A DNA stretch of 5,078 nucleotides from a virus. Its lineage: Duplodnaviria > Heunggongvirae > Uroviricota > Caudoviricetes. A program made the position numbers and the translations under genes. This document shows, one piece after another, positions 724 to 5,078 of this stretch. The stretch lies in the IMG/VR virus record IMGVR_UViG_2671180275_000003; one strand, given 5' to 3'. The stretch's first letter is position 1, and every line of letters starts with the position of its first letter. The notes under the pieces are model-generated. The model worked only from the letters and a program-made list of their open reading frames with translations. It was not told the DNA's origin and did no database searches.

Positions 724-1704
724 TCACGTACTGGCAGGGGTAAACATCACGCAGTAAGTTGCATCTCCCGTTACCGGTCCGCAGTCCGGGCAGTAGCCAC
801 CGCCATGGCGACCGCAGGCGTCGCACTGTTTCAGGGTGGCGATAACCTCCGGTGCTGGTTCGCGGGTTCTTGCGCCAACGCTTCGTGGTGCCTGTATGCA
901 GTTCATCCGGTAACCCTGATAAATACGTCTGGTTTCCGGTGTGTCGGAATTGGAGATGGTGATTCTGGTCATGCCGCCCGTTTCCTGCGAAAGGCGGTCA
1001 AGTGCTGCCCTCAGGCGAACGTGCTCGTGTTCATCGAATGGTTTTCCGTAGGCGGTGAAATTGCCCTCGCCACTGAACCGCAGGTAAGGGGGATCGCAGT
1101 ACACGCAAAGCGTGTTGCCCATGCCGAACAGGTGACTGGCAGAGCTCAGCGTATCCTTAAAATCTGCGTGGATAAGCAGCGTTTGGGTGCTGTTTGCCTT
1201 GTCTGCAAATGCGCGGATTTCCCGCTCAGGGAAGTAGGGTTTTCGGTAGCCGCCGAAAGGCACGTTAAAATCACCTTTTCCGTTCACCCGGTACAGGCCA
1301 TTAAAACAGTGCCGGTTGAGGTACAAAAACATGGCGGCCAGTCGCAGTTCACGGCGGTCGCTTATTCCCGTTCTGCTACTCAGGAAGGCATGATTCTCTG
1401 CGTTAAAGGTTTCGCGAATGATGAGATAGTCACCCCTGTTGTTGTGGTTCAGGAACAGGGTTTTCGCCTCGTCGATCAGACTGTCGGTGTTGTCCCGTGC
1501 TGCCCGCCAGAAATTAATCAGCGCACCATTGGAATCACCCAGGATGTAACGCTTGTAACTGGTGTTCATGAATACCGATGCGCCACCCACGAACGGTTCA
1601 ACCAGGCAGTCAGCTTCTGGCAGATGCGCCTTCAGTGTGTTCATGATGCGGCTTTTGCCACCCACCCATTTCAGCGGTGTGCCGGATAACAGTTCTTTGC
1701 TCAT
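724..1704 (-). CDS. dam: Dam-family N6-adenine DNA methyltransferase (probably GATC-specific) with a ~55-aa Cys-rich C-terminal extension
   Basis: 326-aa product with LKWVGGK and CLVEPFVGGASVF (AdoMet-binding region), LFLYLNRHCFNGLYRVN...FNVPFGGYRKPYFPE, catalytic DPPY (VYCDPPY) and NFTAY, all close to E. coli Dam. SD AGAGG 8 nt upstream; ATGA overlap with the upstream ORF. C-terminal tail has CDAC...CPDC plus two further Cys. Confidence 0.9.
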   Translation of the reverse strand: MSKELLSGTPLKWVGGKSRIMNTLKAHLPEADCLVEPFVGGASVFMNTSYKRYILGDSNGALINFWRAARDNTDSLIDEAKTLFLNHNNRGDYLIIRETFNAENHAFLSSRTGISDRRELRLAAMFLYLNRHCFNGLYRVNGKGDFNVPFGGYRKPYFPEREIRAFADKANSTQTLLIHADFKDTLSSASHLFGMGNTLCVYCDPPYLRFSGEGNFTAYGKPFDEHEHVRLRAALDRLSQETGGMTRITISNSDTPETRRIYQGYRMNCIQAPRSVGARTREPAPEVIATLKQCDACGRHGGGYCPDCGPVTGDATYCVMFTPAST

Positions 1705-1937: not shown

Positions 1938-2519
1938 TCATATGTTCAGGAATGGTGTTGTGAAGCGCTGCCAGATTTCTGACACGACCTTTGCCTGGTA
2001 AACGGCGTCGCCCAGCGCGGTGTGAGCAATGGTCTCTTTGCCTGATCGGCCTGGCATTCTCCAGCCGGTTGATTCAGCCATGGCGATAAGCGGACGCATA
2101 CAGCGCTCGTCCCAGTAGCACCAGGGGATGCTTTTTTCTCCGGCTGTGCGTGTTATGGCGGATTTCAGGATTGGGAAATCGAAGGATGCGCCTTTGCACC
2201 ATATGGTCAGTGAATTGCCCGGGCTTTCGTCATGCATATTGCGTGAAATGAACGCCAGAAATTCGGTCACTGCTGCCAGCTCTGTTCCATCTGCGTTGCG
2301 CAGGCAGGCTCTGGCTTCCACGGATTGTCCGGCCCACCATACAGCGGTGGCTGCATTGACGGTTCCGCCGTTGCGTTCTGAATCCACCGGGTCGATGAAT
2401 TTCTCAAACTGCTTGCCCAGCTTTCCGGTGAACGGGTCGAAAAACACCGCCCCGATCGCGAATATGGCTGCGTCCGGTCCGTTACCCAGTGTTTCGGTGT
2501 CAATCATGAGATGGTTCAT
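1938..2519 (-). CDS. DnaQ-like DEDDh 3'-5' exonuclease (the type annotated as exonuclease/exodeoxyribonuclease in enterobacterial prophages)
   Basis: Exo I motif MIDTETLG, central FDFP acidic motif, Exo III motif HTALGDAVYQA (H-x4-D). The track start at 2528 is GTG; I prefer ATG at 2519..2517 (193 aa), which overlaps the upstream stop as TAATG and has AAGGGG about 8 nt upstream. Confidence 0.8.
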   Translation of the reverse strand: MNHLMIDTETLGNGPDAAIFAIGAVFFDPFTGKLGKQFEKFIDPVDSERNGGTVNAATAVWWAGQSVEARACLRNADGTELAAVTEFLAFISRNMHDESPGNSLTIWCKGASFDFPILKSAITRTAGEKSIPWCYWDERCMRPLIAMAESTGWRMPGRSGKETIAHTALGDAVYQAKVVSEIWQRFTTPFLNI

Positions 2520-2749
2520 TATGCGCACCCCTTCAGTTCGTCTGGGTTGGCGAGTATTGCAATCAGTCGTTCAATGGCTGCGCAGGTTTCCTGTGGACAG
2601 GTGTGTGTCTCTTTCGCTGTCTCAGTCAGCTCGCGCAGTAATTCGCAGATATGCGCACGCTCGGCTTTTCTTGCGGCCATGCTGATATGTGCATGATGGT
2701 TAGCTGGTCTGGCGGTTATTTTTCTGCCGGGTGATTCGGCTGTTCTCAT
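2519..2749 (-). CDS. Hypothetical small protein (76 aa from ATG; track version uses a TTG 8 codons upstream)
   Basis: Track ORF 2519..2773 begins at TTG; the in-frame ATG at 2749..2747 has a canonical AGGAG 7 nt upstream, so I place the start there. Four Cys residues, no recognisable domain. Its stop overlaps the exonuclease ATG. Confidence 0.5.
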   Translation of the reverse strand: MRTAESPGRKITARPANHHAHISMAARKAERAHICELLRELTETAKETHTCPQETCAAIERLIAILANPDELKGCA

Positions 2750-2783
2750 TTGTTGACTCCTGAAAAAAGACAAAGGGAACCCG

Positions 2784-2799
2784 AAGGCATGAATGCCTT
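2784..2799. other. Short hairpin (6-bp stem AAGGCA/TGCCTT, 4-nt loop) in the untranslated gap between the mini-ORFs and the 76-aa gene
   Basis: Inverted repeat read directly; not followed by a U-tract on either strand, so not a canonical intrinsic terminator. Confidence 0.25.
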
Positions 2800-2849
2800 A
2801 ATTAATTGCTCGTGTGTTTTCTGGTGTTATTCCGCGCCTGCTTTCGGCT

Positions 2850-2951
2850 TCAGATTATCCCCAGATTCTTCAGTGCTAACCAGATAAGCGCACTCACCTG
2901 AAATATCACCCATGCAGTAGCGATGGTGAGTATTACTTTTACATTCTTCAT
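2850..2951 (-). CDS. Candidate mini-ORF, 33-aa hydrophobic peptide (MKNVKVILTIATAWVIFQVSALIWLALKNLGII)
   Basis: Found by manual translation; below the ORF-track size cutoff. Single predicted transmembrane helix. Starts 12 nt after the stop of the preceding mini-ORF; no clear SD, so weakly supported. Confidence 0.25.
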   Translation of the reverse strand: MKNVKVILTIATAWVIFQVSALIWLALKNLGII

Positions 2952-2963
2952 AAAGTTTTCGCT

Positions 2964-3089
2964 TTATTTACGGCGTTTGTCGCCAGTAAAAAATAATTCG
3001 ATATCCTTCAGTTCGTGGATAATTCGCATAATGCCGATTGCCATAAGCACGGAGATAATCAGAATTACCCATGAAAGAAATATGCTCAT
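2964..3089 (-). CDS. Candidate mini-ORF, 41-aa single-pass membrane peptide (MSIFLSWVILIISVLMAIGIMRIIHELKDIELFFTGDKRRK)
   Basis: Found by manual translation; ATG overlaps the stop of the 80-aa gene as ATGA (3086..3089); SD-like AGGGG 8 nt upstream; hydrophobic core followed by a basic tail, typical of small membrane peptides. Confidence 0.45.
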   Translation of the reverse strand: MSIFLSWVILIISVLMAIGIMRIIHELKDIELFFTGDKRRK

Positions 3090-3328
3090 GCGGCTACCCC
3101 TGTGAAGTAAGGCTCAACAATTTCACCTTCAAACAGTTCTGTCATAATCGACTTTAATTCTTCCAGCGCTTCACGGTCATCGCTGCCCAGTGCGCAGTTG
3201 TATAGCCCCATAATTGCGCCGCGCAGTGAGTTACGAAGGCTTTCATCCTTAGTTACGCCCCGGTTTGCGAGTTCAAAGTGATAACGTTGCAACGCGTTAT
3301 TGATAAGTATTTTGTAGGCTTCGATCAT
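3086..3328 (-). CDS. Hypothetical small protein (80 aa)
   Basis: ATG with SD AAGGA 7 nt upstream; 18-nt gap from the preceding gene; stop coupled to the 41-aa mini-ORF. No recognisable motif. Confidence 0.55.
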   Translation of the reverse strand: MIEAYKILINNALQRYHFELANRGVTKDESLRNSLRGAIMGLYNCALGSDDREALEELKSIMTELFEGEIVEPYFTGVAA

Positions 3329-3346
3329 GGCTGAATCCTTTATTTA

Positions 3347-3682
3347 TCAGTGCTTGCTTCCCGGATATTGAAAACGCAGGCCGCTGATTAATCTGTCTGC
3401 CGTTCTTAAGGCTTCAAAAAATGTGAAGTCCTGTCCGAAGTAATCATCCCCGCGAGTCAGGGTGAAATTAAATCTGCCAGTAACAGGGCTGCGAAAACTT
3501 TTGTGAATAACGATGCCAGTGTCGCCAATCGCCCAGGTGTGCTTTCCGGTTTGTTTTACCGGGTGACCGTCTGGTGTGGTATGGATTTCAGTGGTTGCGG
3601 TCGCACTATTTTTACGGAAGTGCTGGCGTGCAACGTGGCGTTCGGTGTTGTTATTGATGCGTGCATTTCGTTGTTGCTTCAT
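3347..3682 (-). CDS. Hypothetical protein (111 aa)
   Basis: ATG at 3682, same strand and tight spacing as the operon; basic N-terminus, no motif I can assign. Confidence 0.55.
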   Translation of the reverse strand: MKQQRNARINNNTERHVARQHFRKNSATATTEIHTTPDGHPVKQTGKHTWAIGDTGIVIHKSFRSPVTGRFNFTLTRGDDYFGQDFTFFEALRTADRLISGLRFQYPGSKH

Positions 3683-3707
3683 TCTTCACTCGGTCCTTAT
3701 GCGATGA

Positions 3708-3902
3708 TTACAGTGATTCGTCTCTTGTCAGCCTAAAAATCACTTCAGCCATGACTTCGCTAATTACATCGATCCCCTGATCGGTAAGGGCTTCTTTCCA
3801 GGCCTTGCTTGCACGTGTTGGATCCATCCTGCCTGATTGCTGTTGTATGATGATGAAGCGTAAATCGCTGTATAAGTCTTTTGTTTGAGTGGAGTCAGTC
3901 AT
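3708..3902 (-). CDS. Hypothetical small protein (64 aa)
   Basis: ATG at 3902 with SD GAAGGTG 5-6 nt upstream; second gene of the leftward operon. Confidence 0.5.
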   Translation of the reverse strand: MTDSTQTKDLYSDLRFIIIQQQSGRMDPTRASKAWKEALTDQGIDVISEVMAEVIFRLTRDESL

Positions 3903-3953
3903 GTCAACACCTTCAAATCCCGATGCTCTTAATGATCCCGGTTTGTTTTGATG

Positions 3954-4478
3954 TCACTGGTTGCCTTCGCTGTATTGGTGTTGCTCCAGTTTTGACTTTC
4001 TTCCTGTGTAAACCCGCTTTCCATTGATGGTCTGGCAGTCTTCTTTGTTTGCCGGGGAAAACTTTCTTTTCTGTCGGTCGTATGTCCAGTAGCTTTTCCA
4101 GTTGTGCCATTCTGGCGGCTCGCATTCTGGTAGTTCGTCAGCCAGCTTGTCCCACTCTCTGGCGTTAAACCACCACACGCCATCCGAATTTTCATCTTCA
4201 GGGTTTGAACGGGTCTTGTGTCCAGGCATCTGATTTCGCTGAAGCGCCACGCGCAATGCAGCTTTTGTCAACCCGATATAGGCTGCCCCTTTTTCAAGTG
4301 AGCAAAGTCCGGCTACCGGGCCATCCAGTCGCAAGGTTGCCCCTTTTTTGTAGGTGCGTTTTTTCTTTTCCTCTTGGTGTTCATCGTCGTTTGCCGCGCC
4401 AACGGATTCGGTGATGCTGTCGTTTTCCTGAAGGGCTTGTGTGTCAGATAACTCTTTATCGGCAATTGACTTCCGCAT
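3954..4478 (-). CDS. Cox/Apl-like HTH DNA-binding protein (candidate excisionase/early-promoter regulator), 174 aa as drawn
   Basis: First gene of the operon facing the repressor. Central segment GAAYIGLTKAALRVALQRNQMPG...DGVWWFNAREWDKL has the HTH-then-aromatic-wing pattern of P2 Cox / 186 Apl. ATG at 4478 with SD AGAGGA 6 nt upstream. Acidic ~48-aa N-terminal and ~55-aa C-terminal extensions are atypical; an internal TTG (4334..4332) with AAGGGG upstream is an alternative start. Confidence 0.6.
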   Translation of the reverse strand: MRKSIADKELSDTQALQENDSITESVGAANDDEHQEEKKKRTYKKGATLRLDGPVAGLCSLEKGAAYIGLTKAALRVALQRNQMPGHKTRSNPEDENSDGVWWFNAREWDKLADELPECEPPEWHNWKSYWTYDRQKRKFSPANKEDCQTINGKRVYTGRKSKLEQHQYSEGNQ

Positions 4479-4538
4479 TTGCTATCCTCTTGCGTTGGTG
4501 CGCTTGTCGCGCATCATGAAGGTTTGTTTAGGTTTATA

Positions 4539-4562
4539 AAAGATACTCGTGCGAGTATCTTT
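4539..4562. promoter_or_regulatory. Candidate operator: perfect 11-bp inverted repeat AAAGATACTCG-tg-CGAGTATCTTT
   Basis: Perfect palindrome read directly from the sequence, centred in the 104-bp gap between the divergent Cox-like and repressor genes. A related half-site AATACTC lies at 4574..4580. Confidence 0.5.
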
Positions 4563-4582
4563 CGCGAGAGGTTAATACTCAA
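4554..4582 (-). promoter_or_regulatory. Candidate early (lytic) promoter: -35 TTGAGT (4582..4577), 17-bp spacer, -10 GATACT (4559..4554)
   Basis: Hexamers found by eye on the - strand; the -10 falls inside the right arm of the palindrome, the usual geometry for a repressed promoter. Not experimentally anchored. Confidence 0.3.
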
Positions 4583-4924
4583 ATGGTTATCTTGTCAATA
4601 GACTATGCAAAAAAGCTACGTCAAATACGCAAGGCTGAAGGGCTAACGCAAAAGGAATTTGCGGATATTACGGGGTTGTCTTTAGCTGCCATAAGGAACT
4701 ATGAATCAGGGCAAAAAAGCGCCAGAGCCAAAATTGTTGAGATGGTTCTCCAAGTTGATCGGTTTGAAAAATACATGATGTGGCTAATAAAAGATAAGAC
4801 AATGCCTGCTGCCGGTCAGATAGCCCCGGCTCTCTCTCTTGATGGCTCCATTCAGTCGGAGGGCGATCAGGTTTCAATCGGCATTACCCAAAAATCACCC
4901 CGATCTCGTCGCAATGCTGGCTAA
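4583..4924 (+). CDS. Phage immunity repressor candidate, HTH-XRE family (P2 C-type by size and context), 113 aa
   Basis: N-terminal HTH LTQKEFADITGLSLAAIRNYESGQK; C-terminal KYMMWL...GQIAPAL resembles what I recall of P2 C; sits directly upstream of the integrase on the same strand; AGAGG 12 nt upstream of the ATG. Confidence 0.75.
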   Translation: MVILSIDYAKKLRQIRKAEGLTQKEFADITGLSLAAIRNYESGQKSARAKIVEMVLQVDRFEKYMMWLIKDKTMPAAGQIAPALSLDGSIQSEGDQVSIGITQKSPRSRRNAG

Positions 4925-4993
4925 CGCTGTACATCGAGCGGGTTTCATCCCGTAGAGAGTGTACGGCTGATTCATCCGTTGGAGGGGCTAATC

Positions 4994-5078
4994 ATGTCGA
5001 TTAAGCAACTCAAAGACGGGCGTTATAAGGTTGATGTAAGACCGCAAGGGACGGAAGGAAAGCGGATCCGTAAGATTT
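4994..5078 (+). CDS. int: Tyrosine integrase, N-terminal 28 codons only (P2-type); continues beyond the window
   Basis: MSIKQLKDGRYKVDVRPQGTEGKRIRKI closely parallels the P2 Int N-terminus as I recall it (MAIKKLDDGRYEVDIRPTGRNGKRIRRKF). Strong SD GGAGG 8 nt upstream; no terminator between repressor and int. Confidence 0.7.
   Translation, partial: MSIKQLKDGRYKVDVRPQGTEGKRIRKI

Follow-up and report, generated by a model that had tools for sequence, protein, structure and literature searches.

A probable full-length, ATG-started Cox protein with two charged tails from a P2-like Escherichia coli prophage

Gene organization of the early region

The DNA analyzed here (the window; 5,078 nucleotides) is part of an E. 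coli P2-like prophage adjoining dmsA; strain STEC2018-607 has a stretch with 99.9% identity to bases 3700-5078. Of 5426 complete E. coli genomes, 359 contained related sequence, which was chromosomal every time. The gene under study, a long-form cox, is divergent from a C-type immunity repressor gene, which is annotated 'immunity repressor protein GpC' in ON470599, and the 5' end of a tyrosine integrase gene runs off the window (Table 1). The order of int, the C-type HTH_3 repressor gene, and the divergent long cox is kept in five genera, with loci in Salmonella, Enterobacter, Serratia, and E. albertii, and the gap between the start codons of cox and the repressor gene is 100-113 nt in homologous loci and 114 nt in P2. 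A scan of GTDB genomes, in which the peptide patterns were strict, gave one locus only. Rfam returned no match within the window.

Table 1. Features of the cox gene and the adjoining switch region, in window coordinates
Feature	Coordinates	Strand	Details and basis
Long-form cox gene, 174 aa	3954..4478	-	ATG at 4478..4476; ORF and homologues
N-terminal motif, codons 1-12 (MRKSIADKELSD)	4443..4478	-	Homologue alignments
Acidic linker, residues 13-37	4368..4442	-	Net charge -8, variable length; charge, indels, pLDDT
Basic patch KKKRTYKKGA, residues 38-47	4338..4367	-	Net charge +6, directly preceding the winged helix; charge
Internal TTG, codon L49	4332..4334	-	Proposed alternative start; rejected as a conserved start
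Cox domain, residues 48-137	4068..4337	-	Includes Trp-rich PPEWHNWKSYW; profile, alignment, predicted structure
True C-terminal extension, residues 138-174	3957..4067	-	Basic; alignments, charge
Shine-Dalgarno sequence AGAGGA	4485..4490	-	6 nt 5' of the ATG
Conserved 60-nt leader with candidate Cox boxes	4479..4540	-	Homologue alignment; binding putative
Perfect palindrome AAAGATACTCG-TG-CGAGTATCTTT	4539..4562	.	11-nt arms, 100% complementary
Candidate Pe-like early promoter	4572..4598	-	TTGACA at 4598-4593, TATTAA at 4577-4572; read from the sequence
Divergent C-type immunity repressor gene, 113 aa, HTH_3	4583..4924	+	Pfam HTH_3, E 3e-10; PHROG 147
Tyrosine integrase gene, 5' end, running off the window	4994..5078	+	Annotation

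The 3' neighbor of cox varies among close relatives. It is a 64-aa ORF without a family in the window (3708-3902, minus strand), and the same slot in PV468777 and ON470599 holds a 140-aa hypothetical protein (L001 3590-4012). Because these downstream genes differ, the early operon is mosaic straight after cox. Searches of the 64-aa gene against Pfam, PHROG, and NCBIfam gave no HTH or CII match. A 186-type CI/Apl/CII switch was considered and rejected, since HTH_3 is the only family matched by the 113-aa repressor encoded here and cox is not followed by a CII-like gene; in the 186-type switch, as outlined in PMC3448106, cII lies downstream of apl and the CI-type repressor is roughly double C in size.

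Elsewhere in the window, a D12-class, Dam-like DNA adenine methylase of 326 aa (724-1704, minus strand) ends in a CxxC-x8-CxxC segment (CDACGRHGGGYCPDC), and this tail resembles the linker region of the exonuclease-annotated families phrog_20376 and phrog_2082. A 3'-5' exonuclease is encoded separately (1938-2528), with the methylase gene just downstream of it. Between the two genes, a small ORF (1700-1912/1928, minus strand) overlaps the methylase start and is labeled 'ParE family toxin-like protein' in RefSeq; relatives have a PF24732 ParE_like match in that position, and no obvious antitoxin partner was seen.

Family membership and extent of the Cox domain

The product of the window ORF is identical to RefSeq entry WP_016237837.1, which is labeled 'hypothetical protein', and to an IMG/VR prophage copy. 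PHROG 23196, a family of 174 positions, matches residues 1-174 with an E-value of 2.7e-120. A search of a large protein database yielded 65 homologues, the intact members of which have 166-192 aa and occur in Escherichia, Shigella, Salmonella, Yersinia, and Serratia, and many of which are named 'Cox family DNA-binding protein' or 'transcriptional regulator'. The former name is carried by an E. coli copy with 97% identity, whose CDS has 525 nt as in the window, and orthologues with 83% identity in the phage records PV468777 and ON470599 (Peduoviridae), both of 173 aa, are labeled 'regulatory cox family protein' and 'regulatory protein' with the note 'Regulatory phage protein cox'. The pooled dN/dS ratio was 0.11 for the core, 0.16 for the C-terminal tail, and 0.37 for the acidic segment. 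In view of these low ratios and the 65 homologues, the frame is a genuine gene and not a chance ORF.

The preliminary description had placed a Cox/Apl-type first early gene here in an extended form, about twice the usual size, and the PHROG 23196 match, the PF10743 results given below, and the int/C/cox layout bear out that identification. The size proved not to be exceptional: the form of 166-192 aa that starts at the ATG is evidently standard for the lineage and already catalogued and annotated. A subgroup of larger Cox proteins had also been noted in the literature (PMC3448106), and what Nilsson et al. 2011 show as the 'larger group 2 Cox' may be the 119-aa class or the 174-aa class; no experiments on any long-form Cox were found in the literature. 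The window gene is very probably a full-length, ATG-started cox of a P2-like (Peduoviridae) E. coli prophage beside dmsA, with two charged tails making up the extra length, and should be named as encoding a Cox-family switch/excision protein whose ATG and length are normal for its lineage. The value of this assignment is mainly corrective and leaves the understanding of P2-type switches unchanged.

With the single sequence, the Pfam family Phage_Cox (PF10743) scored 25.3 bits (E 1.4e-5), just under the gathering score of 27.5, and the match covered residues 58-129 and profile positions 11-86/87. The same family was matched by 75 of the 76 aligned relatives, and P0001, which is 98% identical to the window protein, has a precomputed PF10743.16 match. 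A BLASTP comparison with P2 Cox gave an E-value of 0.055, which is insignificant taken alone. The P2 Cox structure (PDB 4LHF) was not found by single-sequence or narrow-profile searches of PDB sequences and required the broad family profile built from 76 sequences, which matched it with an E-value of 2.6e-8; the proposed HTH core is thus a profile match to Cox.

A structural model was generated with AlphaFold2 using a broad alignment, since a shallow alignment of close relatives gave a pLDDT of 43. The core of the model had pLDDT values of 66-86, and the predicted elements were β1 (58-60), α1 (61-68), α2 (72-80), β2 (86-89), an 11-residue wing loop, β3 (101-105), α3 (106-119), and α4 (124-129). 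This order, in which α3-α4 come after a winged HTH that has a long wing loop, is exactly that of P2 Cox, and a Foldseek search with the predicted core ranked 4LHF at the top (probability 1.00, TM 0.67).

These comparisons shift the domain boundary. The preliminary description had put the HTH-wing core at residues 55-115 and had counted a Trp-rich stretch as part of a C-terminal extension with no recognizable counterpart. The Cox-homologous part runs from about residue 56 to about 135, P2 Cox being alignable to about 137, and all six Trp residues lie between residues 102 and 131, within it. Phage D8 Cox (123 aa) is 34% identical over residues 58-137, including the pattern P-x-EWH-x-WK, and the Trp-rich PEWHNWKSYW has its counterparts in PTEWHDWKNRISY of D8 Cox and in the W81/W84 helix of P2 Cox. 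M1, P85, P121, and W127 were the only invariant columns in an alignment of 13 sequences; P85 and W127, which remained invariant when 76 sequences were compared, align with P38 and W81 of P2 Cox, and Y130 aligns with W84. [quoted passage not shown] Because W127, P85, and Y130 align with these residues, the Trp-rich stretch corresponds to the Cox oligomerization helix α4 and is not an extension. The earlier observation was therefore partly confirmed: the gene and its acidic N-terminal addition were recognized correctly, the boundary was misjudged, and the real additions are residues ~1-47 and ~138-174. The lack of a counterpart held for the last ~37 residues in comparisons with Pfam, PDB, and P2 Orf78.

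The heptapeptide PPEWHNW (residues 122-128; window 4093-4113, minus strand) contains PPEWHxW, which is also present in the mitochondrial complex I subunit NDUFA12/B17.2. Membership in that family was tried and rejected; E-values were 0.05-6 over 30-45 residues only, and the likeness is probably that of a short motif arising by chance.

Translation start and charged tails

A total of 47 gene copies were collected, which comprised 34 distinct nucleotide sequences and were represented by 20 sequences with less than 95% mutual identity. GAGGA stands 6-7 nt before the ATG in all 20 representatives, even in cousins with 37% protein identity, and the N-terminal motif M-x3-I-A-[DE]-[KE]-x-L-S-D is kept among homologues, in distant cousins with different codons. 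Initiation at the annotated ATG is supported by these alignments.

The acidic linker has 8 acidic and no basic residues (13-37) and carries in-frame indels among homologues, with natural lengths from ~10 to ~60 residues. Residues 1-45 were predicted by AlphaFold2 to be disordered, and the linker had pLDDT values below 50. The C-terminal tail keeps the pattern KF..KEDC..G[KR]RVY..RKSKLEQ, has 10 K/R versus 2 D/E in residues 135-164, and was predicted with low confidence (pLDDT 50-70) to form short strands and a terminal helix. Alignment of the homologues, the check proposed at the outset for conservation of the extensions, found both tails kept, and because dN/dS is 0.37 in the N-terminal and 0.16 in the C-terminal tail, both are judged to be translated and under purifying selection, the C-terminal one strongly.

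Shorter tails of the same kind are found in other Cox proteins. The median N-terminal and C-terminal tails have 31 aa (charge -4) and 10 aa (+3) in the common 119-aa class, 45 aa (-8) and 38 aa (+9) in the ~161-aa class, and 58 aa (-7) and 40 aa (+8) in the class above 165 aa, and a basic patch is present in every length class, with a median charge of +2 over the last 12 residues of the N-terminal tail. The tails thus appear to be elongated versions of a trait of the wider Cox family, with the window protein at the long end and P2 Cox at the short end. The textbook P2 Cox of 91 aa is in this respect a short extreme, the common members of the family having an acidic N-terminal and a basic C-terminal tail, and the natural variation in tail length offers a cheap route to testing how Cox filaments are tuned. 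An allele of 157 aa without the last 17 residues is common (60 member sequences); it is represented among the homologues by P0012, P0045, P0062, and P0063, and several database entries appear to contain frameshifts. The final 17 residues, terminal helix included, may be dispensable; alternatively, those prophages may be decaying or defective.

Two other accounts of the extra length had been raised in the preliminary description. In one, translation would begin at the internal TTG (4334..4332); the product, of ~126 aa, would have no acidic tail, and the first 48 codons would be an untranslated leader or a mis-annotation. The signal described is indeed present, as AAGGGG followed by 5 nt precedes the TTG in the window, and some relatives have AAAGGAG and TTG at the same place. 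Codon 49, however, is TTG in only 9 of the 20 representatives and CTG in 5, TTA in 4, CTT in 1, and CTA in 1, near-identical relatives included, and TTA occurs in close relatives that share the upstream AAAGGAG. Since the TTG varies among relatives, an internal start is not a conserved feature, and the purine-rich run before it is imposed by conserved Lys-Lys-Gly codons. The 48 upstream codons, moreover, stay in frame across many indels with pN lower than pS, and the ATG has its invariant GAGGA and an invariant spacing to the repressor gene. Internal initiation in place of the ATG is therefore highly improbable, while a minor second isoform from the TTG may be made in this particular phage. 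In the other account, Cox would be fused to an independent domain from another gene, the C-terminal 37 or N-terminal 47 residues having a function unrelated to Cox. The strong conservation of the C-terminal tail and the secondary structure predicted in it could be read in this way. Against it, 1.84 billion representative proteins searched exhaustively by profile gave 21 matches, all of them Cox or Cox fragments, so that, fragments aside, no tail without a Cox core was found there; the tails matched no Pfam or NCBIfam family and no PDB or BFVD structure; and the 119-aa class already has the shorter acidic and basic tails, which gives the long tails an elongated look. A fusion of cox with orf78, the gene after P2 cox, was specifically rejected because the C-terminal tail has no similarity to P2 Orf78. 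A fused regulator is accordingly quite improbable, and the long form is best regarded as a single Cox protein started at the ATG with both tails graded from those of shorter classes.

Switch region, attachment arm, and proposed role

In most homologues, the leader upstream of cox contains direct repeats with an ACAA core at -59, -49, -39, and -29, in exact 10-bp phase. The window leader has exact ACAA copies at -49 and -29 only, with degenerate copies between (shuffle test, p = 0.25), and a PWM scan for ACAA boxes was not specific, with equally good single sites elsewhere for this low-information motif. In P2, the cox boxes and Pc likewise lie just 5' of cox, in a similar layout. The sequence upstream of the 60-nt leader differs between immunity types. 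The perfect palindrome found there in the window is a candidate operator of the C-type repressor, and other homologues have different palindromes at the same position, such as AAAGATAACC..GGTTATCTTT and CTTCACCAC..GGTGAAG. This variety suggests heteroimmune pairs of C repressor and operator based on inverted repeats, whereas the P2 operators O1 and O2 are direct repeats. The -35 element of the candidate Pe lies within the first repressor codons, as the P2 Pe -35 also overlaps the start of C; its spacer is only 15 nt and the assignment is tentative, and a consensus promoter and terminator scan of the switch region called nothing, which leaves both Pe and Pc tentative.

At the 5' end of cox, the synonymous sites of codons 5-11 (ATT GCC GAT AAA GAG TTA TCT; window 4446-4466, minus strand) are almost invariant across 20 diverged homologues, with L10 encoded by TTA and S11 by TCT in all 19 sequences, and pS was 0.31 for codons 1-12 and 0.65-0.70 elsewhere. 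Because these sites are frozen, a DNA- or RNA-level element is likely to overlap the 5' end of cox; candidates are an extension of the box array (CGATAAAG at +18), a portion of the repressor promoter, and a hairpin that sequesters the Shine-Dalgarno sequence. In the candidate hairpin, GGAUAAC (-11 to -5) would pair with GUUAUCU (+27 to +33) over 7 bp.

The att arm was compared in the locus 99.9% identical to the window (L003) and its relatives. Two ATGGACA repeats 11 bp apart lie in the 3' end of int, and about three ACAA-type repeats with roughly 10-bp spacing, again a low-information motif, lie directly outside the int stop codon. The order of the arm is as in P2, with a Cox site and P' arm TGTGGACA repeats, ATGGACA being the counterpart of TGTGGACA.

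By analogy with P2, the winged helix-turn-helix would bind direct repeats one helical turn apart, and oligomerization through α3-α4, with the P85/W127 contact, would produce a filament that wraps DNA. At the switch region such a filament would shut off the repressor promoter, and at the att arm beside int it would direct excision. A dual function in switch repression and in excision, like that of P2 Cox, thus has support by analogy only. In P2 Cox, R73, K75, and R78 have been proposed to contact the DNA backbone (PMC3936717). The basic C-terminal tail of the long form would most likely add contacts with the DNA backbone or with integrase in the nucleoprotein filament, and the acidic N-terminal tail would most likely tune, by weakening or gating, DNA binding or oligomerization and filament growth. 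A more elaborate version, in which the N-terminal tail is an intramolecular DNA mimic that gates filament formation or the wrapping of DNA by the basic patch and the C-terminal tail, or in which the C-terminal tail recruits integrase, and in which, separately, codons 5-11 are a feedback cis element, is speculative and rather doubtful. If gating by the N-terminal tail or recruitment of Int by the C-terminal tail were true, the long-form Cox would be a self-regulated P2 switch and excision protein; if the cis element were true, Cox or its translation would feed back on its own gene through an operator continuation or a hairpin sequestering the Shine-Dalgarno sequence.

Two further alternatives bear on this role. 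The conservation of the first 12 codons could reflect a cis-acting nucleic-acid element and not a peptide function, with the acidic tail largely a passive spacer. The near invariance of synonymous sites in codons 5-11 favors this view, as do the resemblance of CGATAAAG at +18 to the CGACAAGC boxes and the possibility of the GGAUAAC/GUUAUCU pairing in 18 of 19 sequences. That pairing, however, lacks covariation and is disrupted in the most distant cousin, with a consensus energy of just -3.7 kcal/mol, and L010 and L009 encode the I-A-E-E peptide by different codons, which points to constraint at the protein level as well; a purely nucleic-acid explanation is possible and on balance somewhat unlikely. 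Alternatively, Cox could regulate the switch only, and a different, unrecognized excisionase could serve the integrase. The directionality role of Cox is a prediction here, and the att-arm boxes are weak, low-information matches, which leaves room for such a protein; yet the early region has no further gene annotated as excisionase-like, Cox and the excisionases share the core fold of this protein, and the order of the att arm copies that of P2. A separate excisionase is thus distinctly unlikely, and the dual role modeled on P2 is retained.

Comparison with P2 Cox (91 aa, PDB 4LHF, PF10743) places the two genes in the same setting, as first early gene divergent from C and adjoining int, with a shared predicted β1-α1-T-α2-β2-long loop-β3-α3-α4 fold, P85/W127 as equivalents of P38/W81, and candidate direct-repeat sites in two places, immediately 5' of the gene and next to the P' arm. 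The window protein differs in its identity of only ~18%, its 47 additional N-terminal and 37 additional, basic C-terminal residues, and its candidate box core, which is ACAA and not TTAAAGNCA; the candidate repressor operator is palindromic in place of the direct repeats of P2. The dual job of switch regulator and recombination directionality factor is shared with 186 Apl, and Apl and other directionality factors use direct repeats phased by one turn (PMC7498355). Apl is placed in another Cox/Apl subgroup, and its partners are a CI-type repressor and CII (PMC3448106). No sequence relationship was detectable with lambda Xis, Pukovnik Xis, Tn916 Xis, or RdfS, and winged-helix excisionases such as lambda Xis, unlike Cox, are without α3-α4 and the acidic N-terminal tail.

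The Cox proteins of 119-124 aa (D8, pro483, and 11W; PHROG 1831) share P-x-EWH-x-WK within the 34%-identical region, the acidic N-terminal tail, the basic patch, and a short basic C-terminal tail. They differ in tail length (N-terminal 31 aa versus 54; C-terminal 10 aa versus 41) and are without the IA[DE][KE]xLSD motif and the KEDC..GKRVY..RKSKLEQ segment. Other relatives are the Cox proteins of 158-161 aa from Serratia and Enterobacter (P0081-P0087) and a Sodalis protein of 180 aa (P0095), which are 37-42% identical over nearly the full length and share the N-terminal MxxNIAEE, PPEWHSWEDYWTYDR, the RRSKLE of the C-terminal tail, and the genomic setting. They differ in the middle of the C-terminal tail, which is without KEDC..GKRVY. 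The Enterobacter ludwigii locus L010 has four consecutive small HTH_3 genes (1982-3396) between its 161-aa Cox cousin and int, in contrast to the single repressor gene elsewhere.
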